Source: an uncultured Planctomycetia bacterium (GTDB taxonomy: Bacteria; Omnitrophota; Gorgyraeia; 2-02-FULL-51-18). From it: a DNA stretch of 64,000 nucleotides. Position numbers and translations under genes: made by a program. This document shows, piece by piece, positions 19,213-45,199 of this stretch; the stretch's first letter is position 1, and each line of letters starts with the position of its first letter. The stretch spans positions 270,479-334,478 of the forward strand of contig CAZSGP010000003.1 of the NCBI GenBank assembly GCA_964606485.1. The letters are read 5' to 3'. Under the pieces are notes generated by a model. That model was not told the origin of the DNA, made no database searches, and saw only the letters and a list, made by a program, of their open reading frames with translations.

Positions 19213-19240
19213 TGATTTTAGCCCTAAAAAGTCGTAGATT
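19213..19240 (+). promoter_or_regulatory. Candidate sigma70-type promoter (TTGATT-16-TAGATT) for the plus-strand glycan operon
   Basis: Hexamers at 19213..19218 and 19235..19240 lie 7 nt upstream of the ATG at 19248, with AAGG as a possible RBS. Confidence 0.3.
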
Positions 19241-19247
19241 AAGGCCC

Positions 19248-24093: not shown

Positions 24094-24103
24094 AGCAAAA
24101 CCC

Positions 24104-27858: not shown

Positions 27859-29488
27859 GGTATGGTCCTAGTCGTTTGCGGCTAAAGAGATCCAGCCACT
27901 GATGCGGCGCTGCGGTTGCGGCGAAGCGGTCCTCCACCTTCCTTTTGCTGACATCCCAATAAGGTGAAACGCTTTCAACCAGTTCAAGTCCCGGCAGAGT
28001 TTCCTTTAGCGCATGTTTACGCGCATCGATTTCCGCGTAATTCAAAAGAAGGTATTCGGCACCTGTCTCAAGCACGCTCTCGGCGTCGGGCGCCACAGTC
28101 GGCCGATAAAATAAATAAGCATCGCTCACATCATCCGTGGAACGAATCACATAAACGTTATACGTGGGTTTCCCCTCGACAACCTTAAGACTCAGGTCCA
28201 AACGCTTTTCTCGTGCAGAGCCCTTTTCCGAATCCGACAAAAATGCATATTTTTCAAGAATCTGCTCTATAGATTGCAATAAAGGCGCCCCAAAGAAGCG
28301 GTGATCAACCGCAATTACAGCGCCTGGCTTTACGTTGACGTGAATCCATTCGAGCATCTCAGCGCGAGTATCTTTTTTTGTCATCAAATAATCCGAATAA
28401 ATAGTAGGCGCCAAAAGCTCGGCCGTTACCGCCAACAGAAATAACGCCGATATCACCTTTATTCGGTGACGTGATTGCAAAAACTCAGCGCCAAGTCCCG
28501 CAAAAAGACATATCAGGGGCAAAATTGGCATCATATAGCGTGGAAACGGCTGGCTAAAAAAGATGCTGACGCCAAAATAAACAACTATAGCCAACGCGAT
28601 GACGGCTATTTTTTTTCCATAGACCCTACAAACCCCGACACCGACAGCTGACAACAATAGAAACAGTACACCTGTTCCGTACCGCAGAGAATACATGAGG
28701 TGATGCCCAACGCCCTGGTACCCTCTTACCTGCGATTGTCCGGCAACTTGAGAAATAAAATTAGGCCAATCAAGAAAACTAAAAGGGCTGATAGCTGCGT
28801 ATGTGGCAACTGAAATCATTCCAATAGCGATTAAATCCCGGATTTTATGTGAGGCTCTCGAAAAATAAATACTGACAGCCACCACCGGAAAAAAATAAAC
28901 GGCCGTGTATTTAACAGCCACACACCATCCAAATGCTAACCCTATAGCCCACAACCGACCGACGCTATATCGCTCAAGCGCACCCAGGCACAGATAAAAC
29001 AAAAGTAGACACGAAAACGATAGCACTATATCCATATAAATATAATGACTGTGTTGTGAATGTAAAAGACAAGCAGCCAGAAATAATCCCGACCAAAAAG
29101 CGCTTTTCTCGGAAAAAAAACGCCCGCATAGACGAATCAAAAGCCACACTGCAGCCACTCCCGGAATTACGCCCAACACCCATCGCCCAATCAAATAAAA
29201 TTCGGTGGGATCCGAAAGAAACTTTAAAGCAAAGTCCGCCGCACCGGTTACCCCGCCCACTGTTTTTAGGATGACGAAATACGCCGCATAAAAGAAAAAA
29301 AGGTAGTAGCTTGCAAATTGCGGCGGTAGATATGTGCGGGTATTCCAACCCTCGGCCCCGATAGCCATAGCATGATTAACCACGATTGGCTCATCTTGAT
29401 GAGTGGGGTACGGCAATCCAAAATCAAGACCGATAACGCGCAGAATAAGCGCTAGACTTAATATAAGAAAAATTTTATTTCGACTCAT
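27833..29488 (-). CDS. GT-C-fold membrane glycosyltransferase (ArnT/PMT_2-like; polyprenyl-phosphate-sugar dependent)
   Basis: Motif GLPYPTHQDEPIVVNHA after TM1 (the DE motif of the PMT/ArnT family), about 11 TM segments and a C-terminal soluble domain. Confidence 0.65.
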   Translation of the reverse strand: MSRNKIFLILSLALILRVIGLDFGLPYPTHQDEPIVVNHAMAIGAEGWNTRTYLPPQFASYYLFFFYAAYFVILKTVGGVTGAADFALKFLSDPTEFYLIGRWVLGVIPGVAAVWLLIRLCGRFFSEKSAFWSGLFLAACLLHSQHSHYIYMDIVLSFSCLLLFYLCLGALERYSVGRLWAIGLAFGWCVAVKYTAVYFFPVVAVSIYFSRASHKIRDLIAIGMISVATYAAISPFSFLDWPNFISQVAGQSQVRGYQGVGHHLMYSLRYGTGVLFLLLSAVGVGVCRVYGKKIAVIALAIVVYFGVSIFFSQPFPRYMMPILPLICLFAGLGAEFLQSRHRIKVISALFLLAVTAELLAPTIYSDYLMTKKDTRAEMLEWIHVNVKPGAVIAVDHRFFGAPLLQSIEQILEKYAFLSDSEKGSAREKRLDLSLKVVEGKPTYNVYVIRSTDDVSDAYLFYRPTVAPDAESVLETGAEYLLLNYAEIDARKHALKETLPGLELVESVSPYWDVSKRKVEDRFAATAAPHQWLDLFSRKRLGPYLELYRIKK

Positions 29489-30230
29489 CGGGCATTAGCA
29501 CATATACCGGCGTGGCTGTTTTTTTTCCAGCGCGGCGCGTTAGACGCCCAAGCGGAGAAAACTGCCAAAAGCCGTTGGCGGCTAATTTAAGCATTTTTGA
29601 TAAGGAATATTTGGTCTGACCCGCAAAACGGGCCTGTCGATGAATTGCAATGGGTTTTGGATTTTTAGCAGCGTAGGCCACCCATCCGCGGATATAAGGA
29701 TCTTTCTCATCAATCCCACGAATCACATCAGCAATGCTTTTGGACATCAGCCGGAAATCCCCGGTATCTAGCGGCAGCTTTACAGAAGAAAGGCTTCTCA
29801 GTGTTCTGTAAAAAATAGCGGCCGTCCATTTCTTGAAAAACGTTTCTCCATCACGTTTGGCTCGCATTGCGTAGACAACATCATACCCCTTCTCCCATTC
29901 GAGTAACATGTCCGCAAAGAGCTCGGGGGGGTCCTGTAAATCAGCATCAATAGTACCAACCGCTTCGCCCTTGGCATAATCGATGCCAGCCTTGAGCGCA
30001 ATCTGGTGGCCAAAATTCCTCGAGAAGCGTAAAACCCTCACATTCGGAGTCTGGGCGCGGATTTGGCTTAAAATTTCAGCGCTCCTGTCTTTCGATCCAT
30101 CGTCAACATAGATAATCTCGGATGAAACTTTCAACCCCTTAAGCGTTTTAAAAAGACGCGAATGAAACTCGCTCAACACCTCCTCTTCGTTATAAACAGG
30201 CACAACGATTGATAAGAATGGATCAGACAT
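29475..30230 (-). CDS. GT2 polyprenyl-phosphate sugar synthase (DPM1/ArnC-like, soluble type)
   Basis: SIVVPVYNEEE...VDDGSKDRS...[13 protein letters not shown] motifs. Start is taken at the internal Met MSDPFLSIVV (30230); the ORF extends to 30281. Confidence 0.75.
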   Translation of the reverse strand: MSDPFLSIVVPVYNEEEVLSEFHSRLFKTLKGLKVSSEIIYVDDGSKDRSAEILSQIRAQTPNVRVLRFSRNFGHQIALKAGIDYAKGEAVGTIDADLQDPPELFADMLLEWEKGYDVVYAMRAKRDGETFFKKWTAAIFYRTLRSLSSVKLPLDTGDFRLMSKSIADVIRGIDEKDPYIRGWVAYAAKNPKPIAIHRQARFAGQTKYSLSKMLKLAANGFWQFSPLGRLTRRAGKKTATPVYVLMPDESK

Positions 30231-31845
30231 TTTTCTCTTCCTTTTTATCACGGAAATCATAAATAAACATCGAGTACCCAATTACTGCGCTTGGCGGCGT
30301 GGATAGCGTCCATTCACACTGATCAATGCGATGCGCGCCAATCGCATAAACAGTTTTCTCAGGAACGCTTCTTTCGCTATCACGGATAGCTCTTGCTGGC
30401 AGCGACGGGTCTACAGGCCCAATTGTACTTAGCGCCAGGTCATGAACGTCGTTTTGACGCACGTATTCTCCCACGCGCTTCATTTCCTGCCCCCAATCGA
30501 GGTTCGAATCTCTTAAATATCGATAACCATTTTTCGGCCCGCCCACAAATTCATTAAAATAGGCCAGATGATTTGGAAAAATAAAAAGCGCCTCACAGAC
30601 ATGCCATCCCATCAAGCCAATCACAAACACTTTCATTACTTTTGTTTTGTTATAAATAAAAGCCAAGGCACCGCCACACAAAACAAACAATATTGGATAG
30701 ATGGGTAAAAAATAACGTATCCCGGCTTGCGCCTTGTCATTCAGTGTAGCAAAAAATAAAAAAATTACTGGAACTGAAATCAAAGCGATGGTTAATCGGT
30801 CAGGCAAAACCTTTTTGATTAGAATAAAACTGAGTAGTATGGCCAAAATAAAAGGAATTGAATTTTTGATTAAAAAAGCCACAAAATAATAATACCACCA
30901 TCCGTTTCTTGACCATTCACCCATGAGGTATGCATCAACTCCTCTGGCTCTCGTAAACATCATACTGATAAAGGCCGAAGAAAATGTCGATAAAGGCACG
31001 GGTACCTTTTGCGCGAATTCAAGCAACTTCTCACCACCCACCTTTTGATACATCTCCATTTTTTTTGATGGGTCAGGCGTGTCTTTTAAAAGTGGTTTCA
31101 ATTCAAAAAAATAGCCGGCCCAAATGGTTAAAAAACAGCTGACCGCAAATATCCCCATCTTAGACAAGCGAAGCTCTTTGCGTTTACCACCTGCCAACGC
31201 CACTAATAGTAAAATAGGCAGGAGAATCACTGCGCTGAATTTCGATAAAAAGGTCATCCCCGCCGCAATTCCAGTCCACGCGGCATTTGTTTTGGAAGGT
31301 TTTATGAGATAGGAATAAAAACAGATGAGGGTCAAAAAGAAAAAGAAAGCGACTGAGAGGTCCGCCGTCGCAAGACCCGAATGAGCAATAATATTAGGAC
31401 AAAAGCAGTACAGCCCAAGACTAAAAAGAGCTGCTACTCCGCCAAAAAGACGTTTGCTAAAAAGAAAAATGGTCAAACCAAATAACGCAGATAAAAAAAC
31501 GATCGGAATTCGAGCCCAGAATATGAACCGGTCCACAGCGTGATTAGCATGGAAAAAAAACTGCTTTGCAAACTCAGGACTATCCCCAACTTTCCAGGAC
31601 TCATGGTCCAAAGGAGCTTTGGCCCCCAGTAAATAAAGCGGCGCAGAAGCCAAGAGCCTAGGAAACGGTGGCGAAGCTGGGTTCATCTTGAAGTTGCCGG
31701 TCATCCAATAAGAGTAACCACTGGCAACATGGTGATAGAACTCGTCTGCAGTAGCCGACTTCGTTCGCATTCCAAGAATCGTTTGTGCGGCCAGACAAAT
31801 AAGGAGCACCGCTGCGCCCACCCAAAGCTGAGCCTTAGCTCTCAC
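30223..31845 (-). CDS. GT-C-fold membrane glycosyltransferase (ArnT/PMT_2-like)
   Basis: Motif KSATADEFYHHVASGY after TM1, polytopic membrane region and a C-terminal soluble domain; 540 aa. Confidence 0.65.
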   Translation of the reverse strand: MRAKAQLWVGAAVLLICLAAQTILGMRTKSATADEFYHHVASGYSYWMTGNFKMNPASPPFPRLLASAPLYLLGAKAPLDHESWKVGDSPEFAKQFFFHANHAVDRFIFWARIPIVFLSALFGLTIFLFSKRLFGGVAALFSLGLYCFCPNIIAHSGLATADLSVAFFFFLTLICFYSYLIKPSKTNAAWTGIAAGMTFLSKFSAVILLPILLLVALAGGKRKELRLSKMGIFAVSCFLTIWAGYFFELKPLLKDTPDPSKKMEMYQKVGGEKLLEFAQKVPVPLSTFSSAFISMMFTRARGVDAYLMGEWSRNGWWYYYFVAFLIKNSIPFILAILLSFILIKKVLPDRLTIALISVPVIFLFFATLNDKAQAGIRYFLPIYPILFVLCGGALAFIYNKTKVMKVFVIGLMGWHVCEALFIFPNHLAYFNEFVGGPKNGYRYLRDSNLDWGQEMKRVGEYVRQNDVHDLALSTIGPVDPSLPARAIRDSERSVPEKTVYAIGAHRIDQCEWTLSTPPSAVIGYSMFIYDFRDKKEEKNV

Positions 31846-32917
31846 GGTCGAATCCTCTCACCCAATTGCGCATGGGCAATTCATAAAAGTGAAAAGAAAA
31901 ATACGCGATCAAAAGAACAGAGATCACGAAGCTCAGGAAAAATGAGCCTGTTGAAAAAATATTGCGGTTAAGAGCCTTATAATCAAAAAAAGTAAGGACC
32001 GCGATTTGAATTGGGATATGCCACAAGTAAATGCTGTAGGTTAAATCACCAAAACCTTTAAAGTAGGAGCCGATTCTCCCCTCATCTTTGGCGTCCATCA
32101 GCGCTGCCATCAACACGATTGGTGGCAGCATCAACACAAATTGAATAGTCGACTCAATAAGGCCAGGCTTTATATAAACAATAATCACGGAAGCGGCTAG
32201 GCTAAGAGCGCTAAGAATCATCAAAACAACTGTATAAACACGAAAAATACGCCACACATAAAATGAGAGACAGCCCAAATAAAAATAAAGACCGCACTGC
32301 CAAATCGAGGATTGAGGGATCAACGCCTTTACTCCAAGACCAAAAAATACAATAAAAAATAAAACAGCCGTTATTCCCCGCTTAATCACGATGGGCAGCG
32401 TCATAAAGAAAAAAAAGTAAATCAACACCTCGATTGACACCGACCAAATTGGCCCGTTAAAAGAGTACCCTTTTTCAAGGCCCCAGTTAGAGACAAAGAA
32501 AAGGTTTAGAATAAAATGATAGGCATCATTAATGCCATATATCTGATAGCCCCCCGTTAAACGAAGGCTGATCAATTGCAAAACCAAGACCGCAATTAGC
32601 GTCAAAAAATGAAGCGGATAAAGCCTTGCCAGCCGGTGCACAAAAAAACTCTTAGAAGAAGTTCTTTTTGATTTAATGTACACAGTTGAAAAAACAAAAC
32701 CCGAGATCACCCAAAAAAGAAACACCGCATGACGACCATAATTGTAAAAAATATTCAAAACCTCGTAAAAGGGCTGGCTTGAACGATTAGCCAGCGCATT
32801 GGCCGTTTTTATAAAATAAAAATGCTGGTAATGCCAAACAAGGACTGCCAGCGCCGCGACGCCACGTAGGCAGTCAATCCAATAAAAGTATTTTATTTTT
32901 TTTGTAGTCGCGTCCAA
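31835..32917 (-). CDS. Acyltransferase family 3 (OafA-type) integral membrane O-acyltransferase
   Basis: WIDCLRGVAALAVLVWHYQHF N-terminal motif and about 10 TM segments. Confidence 0.7.
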   Translation of the reverse strand: MDATTKKIKYFYWIDCLRGVAALAVLVWHYQHFYFIKTANALANRSSQPFYEVLNIFYNYGRHAVFLFWVISGFVFSTVYIKSKRTSSKSFFVHRLARLYPLHFLTLIAVLVLQLISLRLTGGYQIYGINDAYHFILNLFFVSNWGLEKGYSFNGPIWSVSIEVLIYFFFFMTLPIVIKRGITAVLFFIVFFGLGVKALIPQSSIWQCGLYFYLGCLSFYVWRIFRVYTVVLMILSALSLAASVIIVYIKPGLIESTIQFVLMLPPIVLMAALMDAKDEGRIGSYFKGFGDLTYSIYLWHIPIQIAVLTFFDYKALNRNIFSTGSFFLSFVISVLLIAYFSFHFYELPMRNWVRGFDRES

Positions 32918-34248
32918 GCTAAAAGACCCCCATAAGCAGACAGCGCCATTAAATAAAGGGCTGAAATACGCTTAAAGTAAAAGAAAAGTCCCGGTATGCT
33001 ATAAAAAAGCGCCCAGCCTAATGCTATCGGAAATTCGCTCAATACCAAAAAAGGCAATGCCCAGATCAGATGGTGCCCATAAAAAGTAATGGTATAACTC
33101 AAATTCATAGCGACGAACATCCAGCTCACCGTTCGAAAAAGCACTTTCACATCTGCTTTTTTTGTCGTCATCCAACAGAGCGCTAAGATGCAATTCACCA
33201 TAAAAAATCCGAAAAAAATCTTGGTGATGACCGACTCCGAAAGAGACAAACCTGCCTTGCCCAGCATGAACCTAACCGCATACGGCACCGAACTACTTGT
33301 AAACCAACCACCGGCATTGGAAAAATAAATTAATGTTTTGGGCCCCACCCAAAACGGCGCATACAGTAAAACTGAAATCCCAAAAAAAAGGACTAAGCTG
33401 ATGAGCGTTGCCTTAAAAACACCGAATGTCGATCGGATCTCATGTTTTTTTATGTAATGAATCAGTAGCGGTGGCAAAAGAATAATGGCTGTGAATTTGA
33501 TGAGCACCGCCATCGTTGCTGCAGCGATTGCCGGATAAAAGAAATCTCTTAAGTGGAGATAAATCGCCAACAAACACCAAAAAACCATGACAATGTCATT
33601 ATGGCCATCGATGAGAATATTGCTAACAAGAATGGGGTTTAGCGCAAAAAATGCTGTTAAATACTCCCCGTGGCGTAAATTGGCCTGATAGCAAACTCGA
33701 CCCAACAACCAAACCGATGCCGCATAAAACCCAAAGAGCATCATCTTGAACAAAAATATATTACAGAAATATGAGTTGCCTGCAATAGCCGGAGCAATCC
33801 ATTGCAAAAGACTCCAGCCTGGGCCGTAGTTTTCTGGTAGCTTGACAATGCGTACCCACGTGGAAAGTTCATAAAAAAGATCCCCTGAGTATACCCTTGG
33901 CGCCAAGTAGGGATTTTCGTGGTAAACTCCCAAAATTCGACCCCGCATGATGTACTCATGCAAATCCCCTGAAAATATCGGCGGCAGCGCACATAAAAAA
34001 ATACCCACCAACCCCATAAAACACCAATCTATTTTTTTTAAAATTGATCCTTGCGTTTTTTTTGGCCAAAAAAGAAATGCAAAGGCCACTATCAGGTTAA
34101 GAAAAATCAGATTAATCCAAAAACGGGGCAAAGCTTTTTGGGGTGGGAGGTTGATATCTCCGCCGATCCGGCAGATCGTGGGAAACGCGAGCATCACCAG
34201 AACGCTCGCAGCGTAATAAATTTTTCTAAGTCTTTCCGAGAGGAGCAT
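32893..34248 (-). CDS. Polytopic integral membrane protein, possible GT-C/DUF2029-like glycosyltransferase
   Basis: 451 aa and highly hydrophobic throughout. An acidic-His pattern (SGDLHEYIMRG) follows the early TM segments. I see no other recognisable motif. Confidence 0.35.
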   Translation of the reverse strand: MLLSERLRKIYYAASVLVMLAFPTICRIGGDINLPPQKALPRFWINLIFLNLIVAFAFLFWPKKTQGSILKKIDWCFMGLVGIFLCALPPIFSGDLHEYIMRGRILGVYHENPYLAPRVYSGDLFYELSTWVRIVKLPENYGPGWSLLQWIAPAIAGNSYFCNIFLFKMMLFGFYAASVWLLGRVCYQANLRHGEYLTAFFALNPILVSNILIDGHNDIVMVFWCLLAIYLHLRDFFYPAIAAATMAVLIKFTAIILLPPLLIHYIKKHEIRSTFGVFKATLISLVLFFGISVLLYAPFWVGPKTLIYFSNAGGWFTSSSVPYAVRFMLGKAGLSLSESVITKIFFGFFMVNCILALCWMTTKKADVKVLFRTVSWMFVAMNLSYTITFYGHHLIWALPFLVLSEFPIALGWALFYSIPGLFFYFKRISALYLMALSAYGGLLAWTRLQKK

Positions 34249-34249
34249 C

Positions 34250-35527
34250 CTATTTTTTGCGTTGAGGCGGAATCAGCGTCATTTTTGGAAGCGGCACAAT
34301 AAATCGTCCCCCGGAACTCAAATATTTCTTCTCCTGCTTAACAAATACCTCTAGAAAATGCCACGGCAACACAAGAAAATAATCAGGCTTAGCTTCGCGC
34401 GCTTCATCCTCACTGACGATTGGGATCATCGTTCCAACAGTTTTTTTTCCAAATTTATCGGGGTTACGTTCAGCGGCACCCGCAATCAAACGATGATCCA
34501 GATCAAAATACTGGAGCAACGTATTTCCCTTAGTAGAGGCACCGTACACATAAACAACTTTCCCTTTTTTTACTTCGGTGTTAATAAAATGATAAACGGC
34601 CTCACGAACCGAATCAACGCGCTGAGCAAACTGGAAGTACGCTTCCTTTTCAAGAAGCTTGAGCCTCTTTTCTTTCTTTTCCATATCGCGAACACGCTCG
34701 AGACCCTCTGGGCTTGATGCGCAATCCTCGTGCTTAATATAGACACGAAAACTTCCAGCATTCACGTCGTTAAGCTCAACATCGACAACCTTAAAAGCGT
34801 GGCGTTTGAGCAAATTTTGCAGCGAATACAGCGAGTAATACTCCAAATGTTCGTGGCAAATATTATCAAACGCATTGCGCTGCAGCATCAGCGGCAGATA
34901 ACTCATCTGGATTATCCAAAGCCCTTCTGGGTCAAGGCATTTTGAGATATCCGATACGAACTTATTTGGATCATCAAGGTCGTAGAACATCGCAATACTT
35001 GTAATCACCTTCGCTTTCTTTCTATTAAAATTTTTTTCGAAAGCTGCATGGTTAAAGTAATCGTTGATGATTTTCGTCGTGCCCACCTTCGCTTCTGGGA
35101 CTAGGTTTTTTGCAGGGTCAAAACCGACGAGCTGGATACCCTTTTTCGTGTATGATCTTAAAAGCGTCCCATCGTTACAACCAATATCAATAACAAGATC
35201 ACCCTTCTTGAGTGCGATGCGCTTTTCAGCTGAATGCGAAATATCCGCAAGGGCCTTTCGCATCATTGAGTTTGTCCCAGAGTGGTAGTAGTAAAAGCGG
35301 TACATTTTTTCAGGATTCACTGTGTGTCTTAATTGCAAAAGACCGCAACCGTTCTGCTCCGGATCACAAAGAACAAGCTCGAGGGGATAAGTTTTCTCGG
35401 TGGCTGACGCACGATCAGTAACAAAATCTGAAACGTAAATACTTCCCAGGGACAGAATAAACGCCAAATGCTCAGAACCACAAACACGGCAGCGCGAAAT
35501 AATTTTAAAATCAAAATCCTTTTCCAT
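34250..35527 (-). CDS. Sugar C-methyltransferase (TcaB9/TylC3-like, with N-terminal Zn-ribbon)
   Basis: N-terminal CRVCGS...CG zinc-ribbon, central SAM motif VIDIGCNDGTLL, and a C-terminal C-methyltransferase-type domain; 425 aa. Confidence 0.6.
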   Translation of the reverse strand: MEKDFDFKIISRCRVCGSEHLAFILSLGSIYVSDFVTDRASATEKTYPLELVLCDPEQNGCGLLQLRHTVNPEKMYRFYYYHSGTNSMMRKALADISHSAEKRIALKKGDLVIDIGCNDGTLLRSYTKKGIQLVGFDPAKNLVPEAKVGTTKIINDYFNHAAFEKNFNRKKAKVITSIAMFYDLDDPNKFVSDISKCLDPEGLWIIQMSYLPLMLQRNAFDNICHEHLEYYSLYSLQNLLKRHAFKVVDVELNDVNAGSFRVYIKHEDCASSPEGLERVRDMEKKEKRLKLLEKEAYFQFAQRVDSVREAVYHFINTEVKKGKVVYVYGASTKGNTLLQYFDLDHRLIAGAAERNPDKFGKKTVGTMIPIVSEDEAREAKPDYFLVLPWHFLEVFVKQEKKYLSSGGRFIVPLPKMTLIPPQRKK

Positions 35528-35529
35528 TC

Positions 35530-36312
35530 CTAGTCCCTTCTTTTATGATTCATGGCAGACCTAGCCTCTCCCATGGACGATTTGCTCAATAAATAGCGGT
35601 TTTTTTGAAAAATAGTTCGGCCCCAAATATAAACCAAAAGCCATACACTTTGACTAATGTCCTGAACCTTCATTTTGGAATGCCCATAGGTACGCTTGGG
35701 CAAGCTAATCGAAATCTCGTGCACTGAATATCCGTTAAAAGAGAGGATATACAGACTTTCAAAGAAAAATGAATAACTCTTTGAAACCACTAAACCAAAC
35801 ACATCCTTAGTAATACGGTCGAGACGGTACACCCGAAAAGCGCCTGATGCGTCGTGCGGAATCTTCAAAAGATGCCTTGTTAAAAAATGCCCTAAATGCG
35901 TTAGGGTTTTACGGTAGAGATTCCAATCAGACAAACTCTTTTTGTCAAGATACCGCGACCCAATCACCACATCATATTTCTTAGAACACTCGACAAACTG
36001 AGGAATATCATCGGGCTGATGCGTAAAATCGCAATCTAGAGTCACGAGCGTCTGAAAACCTCGTTCGTACGCCCAGCGAATCCCCTCGCTATGGGCGCTT
36101 CCGATCCCCATCTTACCCTTGCGATGAATCACGCTTACAAGCGGATCATTTTTAGCGATCGCATCAGCAACGTCGCCTGTGCCATCAGGAGAACCGTCGT
36201 CCATAAAGAGTATTTCGGTTGCCAAGCCGAGACTTTTTAATTTTTCATACATCGGGCCTATATTTTCACGCTCGTTGTATGTTGGGATAAAAATCAGCGT
36301 GTCGTTTTTCAT
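35530..36312 (-). CDS. GT2 polyprenyl-phosphate sugar synthase (DPM1-like)
   Basis: LIFIPTYNEREN...MDDGSPDGT...LDCDFTHQPDD GT-A motifs. Start is taken at the internal Met MKNDTLIFI (36312); the ORF extends to 36351. Confidence 0.75.
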   Translation of the reverse strand: MKNDTLIFIPTYNERENIGPMYEKLKSLGLATEILFMDDGSPDGTGDVADAIAKNDPLVSVIHRKGKMGIGSAHSEGIRWAYERGFQTLVTLDCDFTHQPDDIPQFVECSKKYDVVIGSRYLDKKSLSDWNLYRKTLTHLGHFLTRHLLKIPHDASGAFRVYRLDRITKDVFGLVVSKSYSFFFESLYILSFNGYSVHEISISLPKRTYGHSKMKVQDISQSVWLLVYIWGRTIFQKNRYLLSKSSMGEARSAMNHKRRD

Positions 36313-37058
36313 TTTTCTAAAACTCCAGCGCTCCGACCCCAACACAACCACAGCAGCGCAAAATACCCACCAATTGTTTTAAGCGGCTTGTTTTTACTGG
36401 CACCTGCCTTTTTTTCATAGTGAAGGACGAACGGAATTTCGGTGATTCTGCATTTCATGAGACGAAATTTAATGAGAATTTCCGGTGTCACCACAAAACC
36501 CATATGCGGCAGCTCGACAAATTTGTCACCAAAAATCCGAAACGCTTTTTGAAGTGTCTCGGCGCGCATTGCGCGGTAACCGCAGCTGTATTCCCAAACA
36601 CCTTTGATGGGAAAAAAAAGTTTCAAAAAAAGTCCCGCGCCACGGCTTAAAACACTTCGAACACCGGACAACCCCTCTTCCCCGCCGCCTTTTTGATAGC
36701 GCGACAAAATCACAACGTCGTAACCTTCGCTTAGCTTTTGCATCGCCTTCGGAATGTACACCGGGTCATGCGTGTCATCGCAGTCCAGAGTAACAATCGT
36801 ATCGCCGGGAGCGGACGTTTTAGCTGCGTGATGAAGCCCGTCAATCATCGTCTGCCCCAAACCTCGGTTAACCTCATGACGAAGAATCTCGAATGGAAAT
36901 TTCACGGACAATTCTTTTGCTTTTTCATACGTCCGGTCGCTACTACCGTCATCCAAAATTAAAATTCGGTAGCCAGAACCGAGAGCAGCATGAATTTTTT
37001 GAGCGATCGGCTCGAGAGCGAGCTCCTCGTTATAGGCAGGCAAAAAAACGGTGATCAT
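36309..37058 (-). CDS. GT2 polyprenyl-phosphate sugar synthase (DPM1-like)
   Basis: ITVFLPAYNEE...LDDGSSDRT...LDCDDTHDP GT-A motifs. ATGA overlap with the upstream gene. Confidence 0.75.
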   Translation of the reverse strand: MITVFLPAYNEELALEPIAQKIHAALGSGYRILILDDGSSDRTYEKAKELSVKFPFEILRHEVNRGLGQTMIDGLHHAAKTSAPGDTIVTLDCDDTHDPVYIPKAMQKLSEGYDVVILSRYQKGGGEEGLSGVRSVLSRGAGLFLKLFFPIKGVWEYSCGYRAMRAETLQKAFRIFGDKFVELPHMGFVVTPEILIKFRLMKCRITEIPFVLHYEKKAGASKNKPLKTIGGYFALLWLCWGRSAGVLEK

Positions 37059-38155
37059 TCGAAAAAGAGGCGCAGCGCCGCCACCACGTGTTTCTGGGCG
37101 CCGAGCGTTAAGCCGTTAAACATGGGAAGCGATATCATTCGTTCGCTAACACTCTCCGTTACAGGCAGATCCCCTTGCTGGTAACCCAGCTCCTTATAAC
37201 ACTCCTGCAAATGAAGCGGTACCGGATAGTAAATACCCGTCCCGATACCTTTGGCCGTGAGAAATTCGCGGAGCGCATCACGCTTTTCGACAAGCAGTGT
37301 GTACAAATGAAAGACATGCGTCTGATTTTTAGGCACAAACGGAACAGTTACAGACACATTCTTCAGTAGTGCGTTGTAGCGGGAGGCTATTTGATTGCGC
37401 TCCTTGTTCCATCGCTCGATGTATTGCAGCTTGATCAAAAGCACCGCAGCTTGCAAATCATCCAGCCGACAGTTAAATCCAACAATCTCGTGATAGTATT
37501 TTTTTCGTGAGCCATAGTCTCGATAAAGCTTGATCTGATCCGCAATCTTGTCGTCGGAAGTCAACACCATACCCCCATCTCCGCACCCACCTAAATTTTT
37601 TGTCGGGTAAAATGAAAGACAGCCCGCATCCGCAATCGAACCCGCATTTTTACCTTTATAAATTGCGCCGTAGCTCTGAGCGGCGTCTTCCACAACTTTC
37701 AGATTGTACTTTTTTGCAATTTTTTGAATCGGCTCCAAATCCGCACAGAGACCGTAAATGTGAACCGGTAGAATTGCTTTTGTTTTTTTAGTGATTGCCT
37801 TTTCAATTTGGGAAGGGTCAATGTTAAAAGTCTTAGGATCAATATCCACAAACACCGGCTTTGCACCAATGCGCGAAATCGATCCGCCCGTTGCAAAAAA
37901 AGTAAACGGTGTGGTGATTACTTCATCACCGGGACCCACTCCACAAGCTAAAAGCACGAGATACAACGCGTCAGAACCCGAAGAAACACCGATAGCGTGT
38001 TTCACGCCACATCTTTTAGCAATTTCTTTTTCAAGGCTCACCACATTGCTTCCCAGTATGAATTGGCGGGACTTCAAAACTTTCGAAAATGCTTTTTCAA
38101 TCTTCGAATCAACAAGGCGAAACTGAGGATTTAAATCAATAAACGGAACCTTCAT
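37055..38155 (-). CDS. DegT/DnrJ/EryC1/StrS-family PLP-dependent sugar aminotransferase
   Basis: [30 protein letters not shown] and a ~366-aa length typical of the family. Confidence 0.8.
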   Translation of the reverse strand: MKVPFIDLNPQFRLVDSKIEKAFSKVLKSRQFILGSNVVSLEKEIAKRCGVKHAIGVSSGSDALYLVLLACGVGPGDEVITTPFTFFATGGSISRIGAKPVFVDIDPKTFNIDPSQIEKAITKKTKAILPVHIYGLCADLEPIQKIAKKYNLKVVEDAAQSYGAIYKGKNAGSIADAGCLSFYPTKNLGGCGDGGMVLTSDDKIADQIKLYRDYGSRKKYYHEIVGFNCRLDDLQAAVLLIKLQYIERWNKERNQIASRYNALLKNVSVTVPFVPKNQTHVFHLYTLLVEKRDALREFLTAKGIGTGIYYPVPLHLQECYKELGYQQGDLPVTESVSERMISLPMFNGLTLGAQKHVVAALRLFFE

Positions 38156-38165
38156 GAATACTCTC

Positions 38166-40151
38166 TTAAGCTAAAACGGCTTGAGCCGGTGTTGAATGAA
38201 CTTTGACAATTTCGTAGTTAGTGTTGCGCTGGAAAGGCGTTTTGCCAATTTCGGAAATCAAACGGATCGCTTCGGCTTTATCGACGCCAGAATAAAGCTT
38301 ATCACTCTTAGTAGCGCTTACCACATTTTCTTCCATTAGAATTCCGCCAAAATCATCAGCGCCAAAACGGAGTGCTGCTTGCGATAATTTTGGACCTTCG
38401 GTGACCCAACCTGCTTGAATATGTTGAATATTGTCGAGCATAATGCGTGACAGCGCCACCATGCGAAGGTATTCGCTTCCCGTGCGGCGCGGCATCAACA
38501 TCTGTGTAGACTCTGATTCAAAACTCCACGGAATAAACGCGCGGAAGCCACCAGTCCTGTCTTGTAGAGTGCGGTACTGGTCAAAATGAATCATCCGCTC
38601 TTCGATGGTTTCTCCAAGCCCGTAAACCATGGTGCTCGTGCTTTTTAAACCGGCGCGGTGGGCGGCTTCATGAACTTCAAAATAATCTTTCACGGTGGTT
38701 TTGAGCGGACTTACGATTTGACGCACGCGATCCACTAAAATCTCGGCTCCCCCACCCGGAAGACTGTTTAAACCCGCCTTTTTTAAGCGCGCAATCACTT
38801 CATCGATAGAAATTTTAGAAATTTTGGACATATGTTTAATTTCAGATGCTGAGAACGAGTGCACGTGAACCTGTGGAAACGTCGTGTGCACAAACGTCAC
38901 CAGATCTTCGTAGTATTCGATACCGAGCTCAGGATTGTGCCCGCCCTGCAGCAGCACTTGTGTTCCGCCAATATCCAAAAGCTCCTGAATTTTGTTGCGA
39001 ATTTCTTCCTGCGAGCGCACATAGCCTTCACTTTTGTCGCCCGGCAAACGATAAAACGCGCAGAACTTGCAAAGCGTGTAGCAGTAATTGGTGTAATTGA
39101 TATTGCGATCCACCACAAAAGTTGCTTGGGTCGCGGCATTCGGATTTTTTCGCTCGCAAATCTCATTTGCTACCGCACCCAATGCATGCAAACTCGCTTC
39201 ATAATAAAGTTTTACACCTTCTTGAATCGAAACCCGCTCGCCCTTCAAAGCTTTCCCGAGAATTTCCTCGCAAGATAGCGTGCTGTGCGATGACTGGGAA
39301 TGATCCTTAAAAAGAGACGGGAGCTCTTCTAAAACTACCGCTTCCTTTAAAAGACCGTATTCTGCAGCGTACTCCAAAAAGATTCTCAAACCATTTTTTA
39401 GCGAATCATCGAAATGATAACGCAGAACCGAAAAATAATCTTGAAGCACGGTGCGTGAAAGTTCGGTTTTTTCGAACGCCTTATTCAGAACCTCTTGTGA
39501 GTTGGCCTTACCCCAATCACGGGAACGTAAAATTCCTTCGTAAATAGCCGTTACGGCATCGGGGTATTGATCATAAAACTCACGGCGTACGGCCCAGAGC
39601 GCAAATACGAACGGTGTTTGGGTGGTCTCCTGCCAAACTTTGGCCAAATCAATAAAATGAAGCCCCGCGTCTTTTTTGTGGGATTCATACGCATGAAGCG
39701 CCTGATCGCCAATCAGCAGCACCGCATCGAAACCTTGCGGAATCTCTCCAAAATCGGAGGATGCAATAGTTAAATCCGGATCAAATCCGTGGCGCGTGCG
39801 GCACAGCACTTTTAAAAGCGCCGGCGTGGTGCTCCCCTTGTCAGTGATCGCTATCTTTTTTCCCTTAAGCTCGGCAAGTGTAAACCGGCTCACCAAAAGA
39901 ACACTATAAACCGCGCTTTCGGAGCTAATGGACAGATCTGGCAACAGATAAAATTTCTCCGAGTGAGACGCGTACCAAAAAGCTGAGATCGGACTAATAT
40001 CGAGATCCCCACTCAACATTTTTTCGTTGAGCTGCATCGGAGTGCCTTGAACGATTTGTGCGTTCAAACGGATTTTGGAATTTAAAATTCCCAAGTCCAC
40101 CGGCAAAGAATTGATGAATTCAATTGAGCCTACTTTTGCGAGGGATTTCAT
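38166..40151 (-). CDS. Fusion of an MqnA/MqnD-family (VitK2_biosynth) domain with a radical-SAM MqnE/MqnC-family domain (futalosine pathway)
   Basis: Single 661-aa ORF. The N-terminal ~270 aa are MqnA-like (GSIEFINSLPV..., ISPISAFWYA). The C-terminal ~380 aa are radical SAM with CYTLCKFCAF (CxxxCxxC) and the CofH/MqnC/MqnE-type C-terminus. Confidence 0.7.
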   Translation of the reverse strand: MKSLAKVGSIEFINSLPVDLGILNSKIRLNAQIVQGTPMQLNEKMLSGDLDISPISAFWYASHSEKFYLLPDLSISSESAVYSVLLVSRFTLAELKGKKIAITDKGSTTPALLKVLCRTRHGFDPDLTIASSDFGEIPQGFDAVLLIGDQALHAYESHKKDAGLHFIDLAKVWQETTQTPFVFALWAVRREFYDQYPDAVTAIYEGILRSRDWGKANSQEVLNKAFEKTELSRTVLQDYFSVLRYHFDDSLKNGLRIFLEYAAEYGLLKEAVVLEELPSLFKDHSQSSHSTLSCEEILGKALKGERVSIQEGVKLYYEASLHALGAVANEICERKNPNAATQATFVVDRNINYTNYCYTLCKFCAFYRLPGDKSEGYVRSQEEIRNKIQELLDIGGTQVLLQGGHNPELGIEYYEDLVTFVHTTFPQVHVHSFSASEIKHMSKISKISIDEVIARLKKAGLNSLPGGGAEILVDRVRQIVSPLKTTVKDYFEVHEAAHRAGLKSTSTMVYGLGETIEERMIHFDQYRTLQDRTGGFRAFIPWSFESESTQMLMPRRTGSEYLRMVALSRIMLDNIQHIQAGWVTEGPKLSQAALRFGADDFGGILMEENVVSATKSDKLYSGVDKAEAIRLISEIGKTPFQRNTNYEIVKVHSTPAQAVLA

Positions 40152-41246
40152 TTAGGCCACCAAATGCTCTTTGTGAATCGCGGTATAAGTGCTATTAACT
40201 TCCACCGGCTCAAAATGACAAGCCTTAATCAAATTCACAAGTTCGCTGTAAGTAAACCCTTTGGAGGTGGACCCGGCAACCTTTGCAATGACTTCATCAA
40301 AGTTCGTGCCGCCCAAATCATCCACGCCATACTCGAGCGCCACGTGAATGAGTTTTTCGTCGACATAATTCCAAAGCTGGCGAATATGCGGGAAATTATC
40401 AATCATCAGCCGCGCCGTCGCAAGCACCTGCAAATCGGTGGCGCCGCTGGTTCTAGGAATGTAGGACAGTTCGTTATTCTCCGGCTGAAACGCGAGCGGC
40501 ACAAAAGCAAGGAATCCGCCCGTTTCATCCTGCGTCTCGCGCAAACGAATCATATGATCCACGCGCTCTTCCGGTGTCTCGACATGACCGTACAACATGG
40601 TTGCGTTTGATCGCAGTCCTGAACGGTGAACCATTTTGTGAACGTCAAGCCAACGCGTGGCGCTAATTTTGGGCGCACAAATAAGAGCCCGGGCGCGTTC
40701 ACTGAAAATTTCAGCTCCTCCACCTGGCACGCCGCCAAGCCCAGCAGCAATAAGACGATCGATCACTTCCTGAACATTAATTTTTTCAAGTCTGGCATAA
40801 AAATCAAGCTCAACCGCCGTGAACGCCTGAATTAAAACGCCGGGGCAGGATTTTTTAATGCGCGAGAGCATTTCTTCGTAGTAAGAAAGTTTGAGCTCGG
40901 GGTCGAGCCCCCCAACAATGTGAACCTCCCAAACGCCGTGACTTGCCGCAACCTTGACGCGCCGCTCAATCTCATCGATCGAAAGCTGATAAGCATCCGA
41001 CTCCATTTTCTTTTTGGAGAATGCGCAAAACTTACACTCCAAAACGCAAATGTTCGTGTGATTGACGTTGATGCTATGCGTAAAATGGGCTTTGTTTGCA
41101 TGTAAGCGGCGGCGCACAAAATCAGCCATTGCGCCAAGCTCCGGTAAATTGTGGCTACGAATCAACCGGTGCCCATCCTCACGGGAAAGACGCGTGCCTG
41201 CTTTTACTTTTTCAAAAATATCCGCAAATTCTTTGACGATTGTCAT
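40152..41246 (-). CDS. Radical-SAM enzyme of the MqnC/MqnE (CofH-like) family (futalosine pathway)
   Basis: CVLECKFCAF CxxxCxxC motif; 364 aa. The sequence is homologous to the C-terminal half of the adjacent fusion protein. Confidence 0.75.
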   Translation of the reverse strand: MTIVKEFADIFEKVKAGTRLSREDGHRLIRSHNLPELGAMADFVRRRLHANKAHFTHSINVNHTNICVLECKFCAFSKKKMESDAYQLSIDEIERRVKVAASHGVWEVHIVGGLDPELKLSYYEEMLSRIKKSCPGVLIQAFTAVELDFYARLEKINVQEVIDRLIAAGLGGVPGGGAEIFSERARALICAPKISATRWLDVHKMVHRSGLRSNATMLYGHVETPEERVDHMIRLRETQDETGGFLAFVPLAFQPENNELSYIPRTSGATDLQVLATARLMIDNFPHIRQLWNYVDEKLIHVALEYGVDDLGGTNFDEVIAKVAGSTSKGFTYSELVNLIKACHFEPVEVNSTYTAIHKEHLVA

Positions 41247-41854
41247 TCAGCTCCAGCCTCTTTCCAGCGCTTAAAAAGGTTATGTTCTATTTTCAACAAA
41301 TCAAAAACTCGCCCAATCGTAAAATCCACCATCTCTTCAATTGTTTTGGGCTTGTGGTAAAACGCTGTGGTGGCCGGCACAATGTGAACACCGATCTCCG
41401 ACAGATAGAGCAAATTTTTCAAGTGAATCGGACTTAAAGGACTCTCGCGCGGCACAAGTAGCAGCGGTCGCTTTTCCTTGATCGACACGCTCGCTGCGCG
41501 ATGAATCAAATTCATCGTAATCCCATTCGCGATGGCTCCCACCGTGGACAAGCTACACGGGATCACCACCATGGCGTCCATTTTAGCAGAACCACTGGAA
41601 ACTTTTGCAGCAAAATCATCGGCCGGATAAACGGTGAGATTCTTGCTATTTCCAAAGTGTTTCTTAAAATTTTTGTCAATTTCGCCGTGCGTCTTTCCCA
41701 GAAAAATTTCGCGCTCTTGGGCGAACACCTCAACCCCATCTCGACTAATGACAACATGCGCCTCGTGACCTGCTTTAAGCAAATGCCCCACAAAGCGCTC
41801 TCCTAAGATCGCGCCGCTAGCACCCGTAATACCAACGATAATTTTTTGACCCAT
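41243..41854 (-). CDS. ubiX: UbiX-family flavin prenyltransferase
   Basis: MGQKIIVGITGASGAILG N-terminus typical of UbiX/Pad1. Start is taken at the internal Met (41854), so the gene abuts the UbiA-family gene; the ORF extends to 41884. Confidence 0.75.
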   Translation of the reverse strand: MGQKIIVGITGASGAILGERFVGHLLKAGHEAHVVISRDGVEVFAQEREIFLGKTHGEIDKNFKKHFGNSKNLTVYPADDFAAKVSSGSAKMDAMVVIPCSLSTVGAIANGITMNLIHRAASVSIKEKRPLLLVPRESPLSPIHLKNLLYLSEIGVHIVPATTAFYHKPKTIEEMVDFTIGRVFDLLKIEHNLFKRWKEAGAE

Positions 41855-41855
41855 A

Positions 41856-42701
41856 CTACAAGATCTCCAATAGGGTAAACACAAAAAGAAGCACGCCCAC
41901 CCAACCGTTCACAGTAAAGAAAGCAGCGTTAATATTTGACAGATCGTCTTCCGAAACAAAGTTATGCTCGACTTTGAGTAGAACGGCCGTGACACAAACC
42001 CCCGCCCAATACACCCAACCCAGTCCCGCAATCACTCCAAAAAAACCGAGCAGAACCACGGTTGCAATGTGGCAGATCCGGGCAATTCGAAGAGCCCCGC
42101 CAATTCCAAATCGAACCGGCACAGAGTGAAGTTTGTTTGCTCGGTCAAAATCCAAGTCCTGCAAACTATAAATAATGTCAAAGCCCGCTACCCAGAGTAA
42201 CACCGCAAACGCAAGCGGCACAGGGATCCACGAAAACGCGCCGGTCACCGCAATCCATCCGCCCATCGGCGCCATGGCGAGCACCAGGCCCAGCACCCAG
42301 TGGCTTAGAAAGCTAAAGCGCTTTACGCTGTGATAACCCACCAAAAAAACAAGTGCTACAAAAGACAACTTAAAACAAAGTGCGTTCAAAAAATAAGCGC
42401 TTAAGAAAAATATCGCGAGTGACACTCCCGCGACCATCCACGACACTTTCGCAGAAATTTGCCCGGTGACACTCGGCCGGTCCTTGGTCCGCGGATTTTG
42501 CGCGTCTATTTTTAAATCGATAATCCGGTTTAAAACCATGGCGGCGGTTCTTGCTGAAACCATTGCAAGCGTGATCCAAAAAAAAGTCGCACCATCCGGA
42601 AATCGCCGACGCGCCAGCACCATCCCCAGATACGCAAATGGAAGCGCAAATACTGTATGCTCAAACTTAATGAGATTAAAAAAAGTTCGGACTTTATTCA
42701 C
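41856..42701 (-). CDS. UbiA-family aromatic prenyltransferase (menaquinone/MqnP-like)
   Basis: 281-aa polytopic membrane protein with Asp-rich motifs (NRIIDLKIDAQN; DIIYSLQDLDFD) characteristic of UbiA prenyltransferases. Confidence 0.75.
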   Translation of the reverse strand: MNKVRTFFNLIKFEHTVFALPFAYLGMVLARRRFPDGATFFWITLAMVSARTAAMVLNRIIDLKIDAQNPRTKDRPSVTGQISAKVSWMVAGVSLAIFFLSAYFLNALCFKLSFVALVFLVGYHSVKRFSFLSHWVLGLVLAMAPMGGWIAVTGAFSWIPVPLAFAVLLWVAGFDIIYSLQDLDFDRANKLHSVPVRFGIGGALRIARICHIATVVLLGFFGVIAGLGWVYWAGVCVTAVLLKVEHNFVSEDDLSNINAAFFTVNGWVGVLLFVFTLLEIL

Positions 42702-42708
42702 TTAAAGG

Positions 42709-43026
42709 CTAATAAACTTTTACGATTTCGTTGACGCGTGTCACATTCAAAACTTTTTTAACCGTATCAGAGGCATTGACGATAGCCACGTTGATCTTTC
42801 GCTCCGACGCGACTTGCGCCAACTCAAAGATGAGACCGATGGCGGCGGAGTCGATGTATTCGGCTTCCTTAAAATCCATAAAAAATTCACGCCCGGTGAT
42901 TTCGCGAATTTTATCGAGCATGGAGTCGTGAATTTTCATCACGTCTTCCCCAGCCATCTCCCCTTGTATCCGCGCAATGCAGGAACCATTTTTTTGAATA
43001 TCGTAAAAAATTTTAAGATCGTCCAT
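42709..43026 (-). CDS. STAS-domain protein (anti-sigma-factor antagonist SpoIIAA-like)
   Basis: About 105-aa STAS-like sequence (DSAAIGLIFELAQVASERKINVAIVNASDTVKKVLNVT). Start is taken at the internal Met MDDLKIF (43026); the ORF extends to 43104. Confidence 0.55.
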   Translation of the reverse strand: MDDLKIFYDIQKNGSCIARIQGEMAGEDVMKIHDSMLDKIREITGREFFMDFKEAEYIDSAAIGLIFELAQVASERKINVAIVNASDTVKKVLNVTRVNEIVKVY

Positions 43027-43028
43027 TT

Positions 43029-44483: not shown

Positions 44484-45199
44484 TACTTCGTTGCCTGATA
44501 AAGCGTTACGGTTCCCAACATAAAGGAACGAAAGCGAATATCACGAAAACCTGCCTTTTTTAATTTCTCGATAAATTCCGGAACTTTCACAAATCGCTCC
44601 GCAGAATCCGGCAGATATGCGATTGGGTACACTTTTCCAAAAAGAAGCCGCCCGTATAACGCGGTCATGGTGTGCATGTAAAATCTAAAAAATTTCACGC
44701 GCCATTCTTGCTTGGGTGCCGTGATGTCTAGAAAACTAATTTGGCCGCCTACTTTAAGCGAAGCGCTCACCCCTTTTAAAATCGCATCTATGTTTTGATA
44801 GAGATTTCTTAAAACAAATCCAGAGACCACGAGGTCAAACGGTTGTTCGTTGGCAATCGGCAATTCCTCGGCTTTCATGAGAACAAAGCGCGGCTTTGAG
44901 CCAATTTTTGACTCGAGCGACTGCCCCCTCTGATTGGCCACTTCCAGCATCTTGTCCGAGAAATCTATTCCGACAACGCTGCCCTCTTTACCAACAAGAG
45001 GCACGGCTCCCAGCGACAAATCTCCCGTTCCACAACCCAGATCCAAAACGCGCATTCCCGGTTTTAGAGGCTTCAACGTCTCTTTTCTCCAACCCGTGGC
45101 GAGGCCCATGCTCGTTAAGTGATTAAAAAGATCGTATTTGAGCGCAAGATTATCGAACATGGTCTTGATGTATCTAGAATCAGGTTGACTGGACGGCAT
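44483..45199 (-). CDS. ubiE: Demethylmenaquinone/ubiquinone C-methyltransferase (UbiE/MenG family)
   Basis: UbiE-type sequence with VLDLGCGTGDL SAM motif; 238 aa. It is the first gene of the minus-strand menaquinone operon. Confidence 0.8.
   Translation of the reverse strand: MPSSQPDSRYIKTMFDNLALKYDLFNHLTSMGLATGWRKETLKPLKPGMRVLDLGCGTGDLSLGAVPLVGKEGSVVGIDFSDKMLEVANQRGQSLESKIGSKPRFVLMKAEELPIANEQPFDLVVSGFVLRNLYQNIDAILKGVSASLKVGGQISFLDITAPKQEWRVKFFRFYMHTMTALYGRLLFGKVYPIAYLPDSAERFVKVPEFIEKLKKAGFRDIRFRSFMLGTVTLYQATK

Follow-up and report, generated by a model that had tools for sequence, protein, structure and literature searches.

A candidate sugar C-methyltransferase cassette beside an aminotransferase unit in an Omnitrophota envelope glycosylation locus

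Antibiotics and the surface glycans of a few pathogens are almost the only known sources of branched-chain sugars; 3-C-methylmannose is found in the lipopolysaccharide (LPS) of Helicobacter pylori, and N-acylkansosamine in Mycobacterium kansasii. The closest described relatives of the enzyme considered here are the 3-C-methyltransferases of antibiotic pathways (MtmC, TylC3, TcaB9 and KijD1). In a 64,000-nucleotide stretch of DNA from an Omnitrophota bacterium (contig CAZSGP010000003.1 of assembly GCA_964606485.1, positions 270,479 to 334,478; the whole stretch is called the window below) there is a gene string for envelope glycosylation, one product of which, here called MT, has the same three domains, Cys4 site, S-adenosylmethionine (SAM) motif, tyrosine and Glu-His pair as these enzymes. 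Whereas the kin of MtmC and TcaB9 are encoded in secondary-metabolite clusters and have dTDP-sugar enzymes for neighbours, MT stands among envelope glycan genes and the usual neighbour of its clade is a GDP-mannose-type dehydratase; the clade also differs from its antibiotic kin by aspartate and cysteine replacements held across thousands of bacterial, Candidate Phyla Radiation (CPR) and archaeal sequences.

A second described system is the virenose of Coxiella burnetii LPS, for which an in silico study proposes a GDP-virenose route made up of Gmd, the TylCIII-like protein CBU_0691 and a reductase, acting on GDP-4-keto-6-deoxymannose (PMC3539893). The likeness lies in a C-methyltransferase of this family in the context of an envelope glycan, LPS in Coxiella, and the widespread form of the cassette described below also consists of Gmd, a methyltransferase and a reductase-like short-chain dehydrogenase/reductase (SDR). 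Virenose, however, is thought to enter the O-antigen via ordinary nucleotide-sugar glycosyltransferases, whereas MT is coupled to a GT2 enzyme resembling dolichol-phosphate mannose synthase (DPMS) and to a GT-C glycosyltransferase, which implies a polyprenyl-monophosphate donor. The expectation that a C-methyl sugar would be a rare envelope modification is a fair one, but Coxiella provides a precedent. The literature searched yielded no description of a mobile cassette in which such a C-methyltransferase is coupled to both a DPMS-like GT2 and a GT-C enzyme, nor of a polyprenyl-phosphate-linked branched sugar.

The original prediction for positions 34250-38155 of the window read a DegT aminotransferase, two DPM1-like GT2 enzymes and MT as a single module for a C-methyl aminosugar carried on polyprenyl phosphate. 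All four open reading frames (ORFs) are intact, on the minus strand and tightly packed as had been described, but the proposed single module is not supported, as DegT1-GT2a-PMT_2 and GT2b-MT-GT-C are separable across genomes and the four genes therefore join half of each of two units. Comparison of gene order leads us to favour, with moderate confidence, a region made up of one unit of DegT1, GT2a and PMT2_540, into which a second unit of GT2b, MT and MEM451 has been inserted. More tentatively, and with rather less confidence, we propose that this trio is a mobile cassette widespread in bacteria, CPR and archaea (accompanied elsewhere by a Gmd-family reductase and a fused second methyltransferase), which would supply the first known polyprenyl-phosphate-linked donor of a branched-chain (C-methyl) sugar, decorating the outer face of the envelope, and whose methyltransferase clade, marked by Asp183 and Cys224, would prefer GDP-sugars. 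Everything reported here rests on sequence and predicted structure, from which the gene identities, motifs, GT-C fold and synteny are read directly. The genes concerned are as follows.

DegT1, 37055-38155, minus strand: pyridoxal-phosphate-dependent sugar aminotransferase of 366 aa (PF01041, E = 9e-128); backbone unit
GT2a, 36309-37058, minus strand: DPMS/DPM1-like GT2 of 249 aa (PF00535) with no transmembrane helices; backbone unit
GT2b, 35530-36312, minus strand: DPMS/DPM1-like GT2 of 260 aa (PF00535) with no transmembrane helices; cassette
MT, 34250-35527, minus strand: protein of 425 aa of the nucleoside-diphosphate (NDP)-hexose C-methyltransferase family (PF08421, PF13489, PF08484); cassette core
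MEM451, 32893-34248, minus strand: MptA/B-family GT-C glycosyltransferase of 451 aa; third gene of the cassette
AT3_360, 31835-32917, minus strand: Acyl_transf_3 membrane acyltransferase (PF01757, E = 6e-23)
PMT2_540, 30223-31845, minus strand: PMT_2/ArnT-like GT-C (PF13231); backbone unit

Comparative synteny of the two units

In four long contigs (L088 to L091) the backbone runs from menaquinone (mqn) genes into DegT, GT2a and a PMT_2 gene, often followed by a further PMT_2 gene and YfhO, and neither GT2b nor a methyltransferase with the Methyltransf_13 and Methyltransf_14 domains (MT13/14) was found in it there. The same order is kept in GCA_022072175.1 and in other Omnitrophota assemblies, with GT2a directly after DegT in every contig compared (L088 to L091, L172 and L173) and orthologues of PMT2_540 (589-670 bits) immediately after GT2a in L089, L091, L172 and L173. 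In the window, the trio and the Acyl_transf_3 gene separate GT2a from the PMT_2 gene that is its immediate successor elsewhere.

The cassette is found in other positions. In L172 and L173, which are the contigs most like the window (MT 78% identical), a GT2b that carries a class I methyltransferase domain as a fusion (GT2b::MT), MT13/14 and an MptA/B GT-C gene lie exactly between mqnD and mqnC, and downstream of them come intact MqnC, DegT, GT2a, PMT_2, GT2, PMT_2 and YfhO. The trio lies among GT9 heptosyltransferase genes in L002 and L004, where DegT is absent within 10 kb, and on contig SRR20074300_2137 some nine genes separate the GT2b::MT and MT13/14 pair from DegT-GT2a. The slot that MEM451 holds beside MT is occupied likewise in L002, L004, L172 and L173, and seven MEM451 orthologues lie on contigs of matching size to those bearing MT orthologues. 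When metagenome contigs were scanned with GT2b, a full MT13/14 was found within 3 kb at 45 of 80 loci (29 of 36 when only loci with sufficient flanks are counted), the commonest order being MT13/14, a Gmd-family SDR and GT2b::MT; one contig, L105, has the whole set of Gmd, MT13/14, a Gmd-family SDR with His for Glu, and GT2b::MT.

The alternative that all of these genes serve one pathway, in which an NDP-4-keto-6-deoxy sugar would be methylated at C-3, transaminated at C-4 by DegT1 and delivered via polyprenyl phosphate, has in its favour that they form a single tightly packed and apparently co-translated string, that DegT1, GT2a, GT2b and MT occur within 7 kb in the Omnitrophica genome L008, and that 4-amino-3-C-methyl sugars exist in nature (kansosamine and sibirosamine). 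The conservation of DegT1-GT2a-PMT_2 without MT13/14 in L088 to L091, the DegT-free cassettes of L002 and L004 and the presence of mqnC between cassette and DegT in L172, L173 and L008 all speak against it. So does the wider distribution of the clade: among 80 loci from species-representative genomes, in which ORFs were called and then probed with the window proteins and with neighbours met on the way, any DegT lay within 6 kb of the methyltransferase in just 14. The affinities of DegT1, whose SFYPTK lysine motif is present in the translation, also disagree with amination at C-4. Its nearest PDB relatives are C-3 aminotransferases (7b0d at 395 bits, QdtB at 371, WbpE at 324 and DesV at 306), whereas it scored 175-241 bits against C-4 enzymes (perosamine synthase 241, ArnB 187-193), and an amine and a methyl group both at C-3 would need a 2,3-dehydratase route, none of which was found in the window. 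We consider a single pathway unlikely, and of all that was originally predicted the C-methyl amino sugar has the least support; the cassette product is most likely a C-methyl 6-deoxyhexose and not an amino sugar.

The preferred division into a backbone and an inserted cassette agrees with base composition, in that the cassette genes have a GC content of 0.40-0.44 and most backbone genes 0.46-0.49, with AT3_360 the lowest of the block at 0.404. This support is weakened by the small size of the gap and by the low value of a backbone gene, PMT2_540 (0.437). Repeats at the cassette borders were short, chance-level matches only, giving no insertion scar.

DegT had been placed at the head of the operon, but it is not clearly so, since the stop codon of the fused MqnD-MqnC gene is only 10 nt upstream of DegT1. 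The DegT1/GT2a junction is a 4-nt ATGA overlap, and the GT2a/GT2b junction is likewise if GT2b begins at 36312; the longest ORF of GT2b is 35530-36351, but its start is likely to be the ATG at 36312, which overlaps the stop codon of GT2a in this way. The gaps that follow are 2 nt between GT2b and MT and 1 nt between MT and MEM451. A scan of 25.5-45.4 kb for consensus promoters and terminators gave promoters in the number obtained from shuffled sequence, and the surplus terminator-like sites were intragenic, so that neither marked an operon boundary.

The menaquinone genes themselves have some features of note. Across 25579-45199 (minus strand) the futalosine-pathway genes for UbiE, UbiD, UbiA, UbiX, MqnE and MqnD-C run unbroken into the glycosylation string, and this order, continuing through DegT, GT2a, PMT_2, GT2, PMT_2 and YfhO, is shared by at least six contigs of Omnitrophota (L088 to L091, L172 and L173). 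At 38166-40151 (minus strand) MqnD (VitK2_biosynth) and MqnC (radical SAM) are fused into one protein of 661 aa, which scored 451 bits against TIGR03699 (cut-off 428); the same fusion occurs in L091, and the two are separate genes in L088 to L090 and L172.

The backbone unit resembles the Arn pathway (ArnB-ArnC-ArnT) in combining a DegT aminotransferase, a GT2 and a PMT_2/ArnT-like GT-C. Unlike that pathway, its operon contains no equivalents of ArnA, ArnD or ArnE/F, DegT1 is nearer to QdtB and WbpE than to ArnB, and GT2a is without the transmembrane helices of ArnC. A separate and complete Arn-like set is encoded on the plus strand at 19194-25582, consisting of an extended SDR, an Acyl_transf_3 protein, a second DegT, an ArnC/PgfS-like GT2 with two transmembrane helices, a hexapeptide N-acyltransferase and a PMT_2/GT87 GT-C. 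Immediately after the backbone in L089 (10369-15067) come an FdtA-like 3,4-ketoisomerase, a DegT, an ArnC-like GT2, a methyltransferase and a PMT_2 gene, and in Omnitrophota such aminosugar carrier units seem to be built in a modular way and to vary.

The methyltransferase and its likely substrate

MT was said to combine an N-terminal zinc domain, a SAM motif and a C-terminal C-methyltransferase domain, and all three are present by Pfam and by alignment: a PF08421 zinc-binding domain at residues 13-76, a PF13489 class I methyltransferase domain at 95-249 and PF08484 at 255-414 (E = 1.3e-45). The matches to both PF08421 and PF08484 also answer the hidden Markov model check that had been suggested for Methyltransf_13/14, and membership of the TylC3/TcaB9/MtmC family stands. 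Against all PDB sequences MT matched over its full length MtmC (4rv9, a D-mycarose 3-C-methyltransferase; 2.7e-61), TcaB9 (3ndi; 3e-41) and KijD1 (5t64; 5e-39), with residues 9-422 aligned to MtmC 9-419, and the next match was at only E = 3e-4.

Searched against 5.8 billion proteins, MT had more than 8000 relatives. The best 120 of these are 57-100% identical and the named ones among them span DPANN archaea, Patescibacteria and Aminicenantes, the nearest from a species-representative genome belonging to a Candidatus Omnitrophica metagenome-assembled genome (78% identity). In an alignment of 40 relatives, the zinc-site residues C13, C16, C54 and C61, which correspond to the CxxC...CxxC cysteines in TcaB9 and MtmC, are invariant, as are the SAM motif D114-I115-G116-x-N118-D119-G120 and residues Y79, H225, E226 and H227.

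Residues probed in TcaB9 were located by aligning the clade profile to the wild-type chain and to the point-mutant chains 4e31 (Tyr76 to Phe), 4e2w (His181 to Asn) and 4e2x (Tyr222 to Phe). Tyr76 of TcaB9 corresponds to Tyr79 of MT, and the Glu224-His225 dyad, which from mutagenesis work we take to be the catalytic base, corresponds to Glu226-His227; both are kept. Architecture, full-length alignment and these core catalytic residues make MT a member of the sugar C-methyltransferase family. His181 is replaced by an invariant Asp183 and Tyr222 by Cys224 (in at least 90% of the clade), at positions where MtmC retains His and Tyr, and by the alignment MT sits in a distinct, large clade with an active-site signature of its own.

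These two replacements of the five probed residues mean that the regiochemistry, and even the substrate class, could differ from that of TcaB9. MT might then have the fold of the family and a different chemistry, such as C-5 methylation (as in NovU), methylation beside a 3-keto group, or methylation of oxygen or nitrogen. The family does vary in regiochemistry, the replacements run through the whole clade, and no characterised member of the clade was found in the literature searched, which likewise weakens the assignment. Set against a change of chemistry are the conservation of the Glu-His dyad, Tyr79, the zinc site and the entire C-terminal sugar-nucleotide domain, and the fact that O- and N-methylation do not need a keto sugar, whereas the clade is found mainly beside 4,6-dehydratases and a reductase-like SDR of the Gmd family, just the enzymes that a 4-keto intermediate calls for. 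A different chemistry therefore seems to us very unlikely.

The neighbours that bear on this were counted in the same 80 genomes. A Gmd-family SDR lay within 2.5 kb of the methyltransferase in 36 of them, mostly directly adjoining it, with another extended SDR near it in 21 and a sugar-1-phosphate nucleotidyltransferase in 11. The adjoining SDRs score as GDP-mannose 4,6-dehydratase-like against NCBIfam models (Nitrospira 360, Polyangiaceae 226 and Methanoregula 192 bits), while at archaeal loci the SDR is like the dTDP-glucose/LegB-type 4,6-dehydratases and stands beside a nucleotidyltransferase. As the usual neighbours are 4,6-dehydratases of Gmd and RmlB type, gene context across the clade gives good support to MT being a probable C-methyltransferase of NDP-4-keto-6-deoxyhexoses.

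A further Gmd-family SDR, encoded between MT13/14 and GT2b::MT (L105:3540-4484, L120:5052-6005 and similar loci), has the dehydratase Glu replaced by His or rarely by Leu, reading AASSH[VI]FG where a true Gmd has S[ST]SE[LI][FY]G, yet keeps the Ser...YxxxK residues. The combination of His for the dehydratase Glu with a retained Ser...YxxxK fits a 4-ketoreductase, and from these motifs the SDR is probably the 4-ketoreductase for the methylated sugar.

The 4-keto-sugar substrate originally proposed is thus only partly upheld, since 4,6-dehydratases are habitual beside the clade but none is encoded in the 64-kb window. Searches of the window for a 4,6-dehydratase, Gmd, an Rmd-like reductase SDR, a matching nucleotidyltransferase and the fused methyltransferase domain found none of them, the remainder of the window holding menaquinone, fatty-acid and housekeeping genes, and the supply of substrate at this locus is unproven for want of the dehydratase set. 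This counts against our assignment for the window, as does the loss from the Omnitrophota cassette of the reductase-like SDR that most of its other versions carry. The 4-keto group is then unaccounted for and might be taken up by DegT1, which provides the best remaining argument for a single pathway of C-methylation and transamination.

Two SDRs of the window were considered as suppliers of the keto sugar and set aside as unproven. The RmlB-like SDR at 19194-20237 reads TGTRGQYG...YEITN and has neither the Asp-Glu pair nor the YxxxK lysine, and the one at 12238-13266, which reads STCSNYG, is likewise without the Asp-Glu pair.

The glycosyltransferases and lipid-carrier delivery

The description of both GT2 enzymes as DPM1-like was correct. 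Pyrococcus furiosus DPMS (PfDPMS) is the best solved relative of each (111 bits for GT2a and 76 for GT2b), followed by ArnC, and solved relatives other than DPMS and ArnC were not found for either. The two are only distant relatives of each other, and a mutual score of merely 59 bits argues against a recent duplication. Residues of DPMS were mapped manually from printed alignments, the chain numbering being the numbering of the structure paper plus 22; that paper gives the residue roles and describes Arg117, Arg131 and Ser135 as "conserved in bona fide DPMSs" (PMC5526996). The donor motif 89-DADLQH-94 of PfDPMS is DCDDTH in GT2a and DCDFTH in GT2b, with Thr for Gln93 in both. The dolichyl phosphate (Dol-P) phosphate-binding residues Arg117/Arg131/Ser135 are R/R/S in GT2a and R/R/T in GT2b, and the acceptor-loop Arg202 and Lys208 are kept in GT2b.

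GT2b lacks the class I methyltransferase domain that most of its relatives carry as a fusion, the presence of which was confirmed in relatives. Orthologues of GT2a are 57-69% identical, and every named source among the matches listed belongs to Omnitrophota/Omnitrophica. A third GT2 of this general kind, the PgfS/ArnC-like GT2c at 29475-30281 (minus strand), shows an in-frame loss of about 55 residues amounting to the two C-terminal transmembrane helices of its L172 and L173 orthologues (305-309 aa); it keeps the conserved C-terminal tail and is predicted to be soluble.

MEM451 had no match in our local copy of Pfam and its family was settled by precomputed Pfam, which assigns PF26314 (MptA/B family) to it and to all of its listed relatives, together with the predicted fold. 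An AlphaFold 2 model built on 35 homologues (predicted local distance difference test 93.4, predicted template-modelling score 0.93) was compared with the PDB, and its best 22 fold matches were all GT-C enzymes using polyprenyl-phosphate-linked donors, with ALG3 at template-modelling scores of 0.61/0.71 and ALG6, GPI mannosyltransferase I, PimE, ArnT, OST and AftA among the others. Residue D95 is invariant within SGDLxEY, and the helix map of the model suggests that it lies in the first extracytoplasmic loop. The gene in the equivalent slot of L002 scores 346 bits against MEM451. On this model MEM451 is predicted to transfer a lipid-linked sugar to an envelope acceptor.

This arrangement recalls the DPMS systems that work with MptA/MptB, PimE or ALG3, the GT2 enzymes having the DxDxxH motif and acceptor-phosphate residues and MEM451 having the GT-C fold, closest to users of dolichyl-phosphate mannose and polyprenyl-phosphate mannose. 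Unlike those systems, the sugar is predicted to be a C-methyl 6-deoxyhexose and not mannose, Gln93 is replaced by Thr, a transmembrane domain is absent, and the synthase, the GT-C and a sugar-modifying enzyme are encoded together as one mobile cassette.

The case for delivery on polyprenyl phosphate, as first predicted, is strengthened by the DPMS motifs in both GT2 enzymes and by a GT-C gene directly after MT, and on its sequence GT2b is predicted to be the polyprenyl-phosphate glycosyltransferase of the cassette. The features that tell against it suit the alternative that GT2a, GT2b or both are ordinary GT2 enzymes that elongate a lipid-linked or soluble glycan and not polyprenyl-phosphate sugar synthases, with no monophosphate carrier. 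They score 38-50 bits against the NCBIfam models for named polyprenyl-phosphate glycosyltransferases (ArnC, PpgS, AglJ, PgfS and DPhHxTase), whose cut-offs are 325-529; the Gln93 metal-site residue of DPMS is Thr in both; and transmembrane segments, present in the ArnC-like GT2 at 22502-23437, are absent from both. DPM1 and PpgS, however, are known examples without transmembrane segments, no solved relatives besides DPMS and ArnC were found, the positions of the Dol-P phosphate residues Arg117, Arg131 and Ser135 are kept, and each GT2 consistently precedes a GT-C, an enzyme type that depends on a sugar donor linked to lipid phosphate. Ordinary elongating enzymes are on this evidence a highly improbable explanation.

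AT3_360 is probably, from its family, a glycan O-acylase. It stands beside the cassette only in this window and is absent from the cassettes of L172, L173, L002 and L004. Elsewhere in the window, an MBOAT (AlgI-like) gene is followed by a weak DUF1574 match (14754-17298, plus strand), a pair typical of polysaccharide O-acylation.

The window is rich in other surface glycan genes. Within 17 kb (17295-34248) there are seven genes of GT-C type (five PMT/PMT_2, one YfhO-like and one MptA/B) and four DPMS/ArnC-like GT2 genes, an unusual density of lipid-carrier glycosylation units. At 542-13266 (minus strand) lies a nonulosonic acid cluster of legionaminic-acid type, in which LegC scores 533 bits against an NCBIfam cut-off of 420; it also encodes a NeuC::NeuB fusion of 742 aa (8216-10444), a PglD-like acetyltransferase, a CBS-domain nucleotidyltransferase, a CMP-sugar synthetase, a HisH/HisF-like pair, a TylF-like methyltransferase and a Methyltransf_23 protein.

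A proposed scheme and its meaning for Omnitrophota

Under the two-unit arrangement there would be two parallel and independent polyprenyl-phosphate sugar routes, adjacent by chance; we infer from the genes all of their chemical steps, as well as which nucleotide carrier is used, where the methyl group goes, what the acceptor is and what becomes of the keto group. In the backbone unit, an NDP-keto-sugar would be aminated by DegT1 and the amino sugar transferred to polyprenyl phosphate by the DPMS-like GT2a, and after flipping of the lipid the ArnT/PMT-like GT-C PMT2_540 would load an envelope acceptor, following an Arn-like logic.

In the cassette unit, a 4,6-dehydratase encoded outside the window would provide an NDP-4-keto-6-deoxyhexose, most likely GDP-4-keto-6-deoxymannose as Gmd is the usual neighbour of the clade. 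Glu226-His227 of MT would deprotonate the carbon adjacent to the keto group, which would then be methylated from SAM, and the 4-keto group would be reduced by an unlinked reductase or by MT itself, as MtmC is reported to have 4-ketoreductase activity in work cited in PMC3539893. GT2b would move the C-methyl 6-deoxyhexose onto polyprenyl phosphate and, after flipping, the MptA/B-type GT-C MEM451 would pass it to a periplasmic acceptor, possibly the LPS core, which is hinted at by the position of the L002 and L004 cassettes among heptosyltransferase genes. AT3_360 may O-acylate the product.

The locus carries a caution for annotation, as adjacency in an operon does not equal a shared pathway and synteny splits an apparent module in two. 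The Asp183/Cys224 signature could be used to annotate thousands of entries now named only "class I SAM-dependent methyltransferase", and the compact four-gene set of L105 is amenable to a direct test. If the proposal is true, a C-methyl sugar would commonly decorate the surfaces of uncultured bacteria and archaea (Omnitrophota, Acidobacteriota, Verrucomicrobiota, CPR, DPANN and methanogens), and would be delivered on a lipid monophosphate, a route that has not been described for branched-chain sugars.

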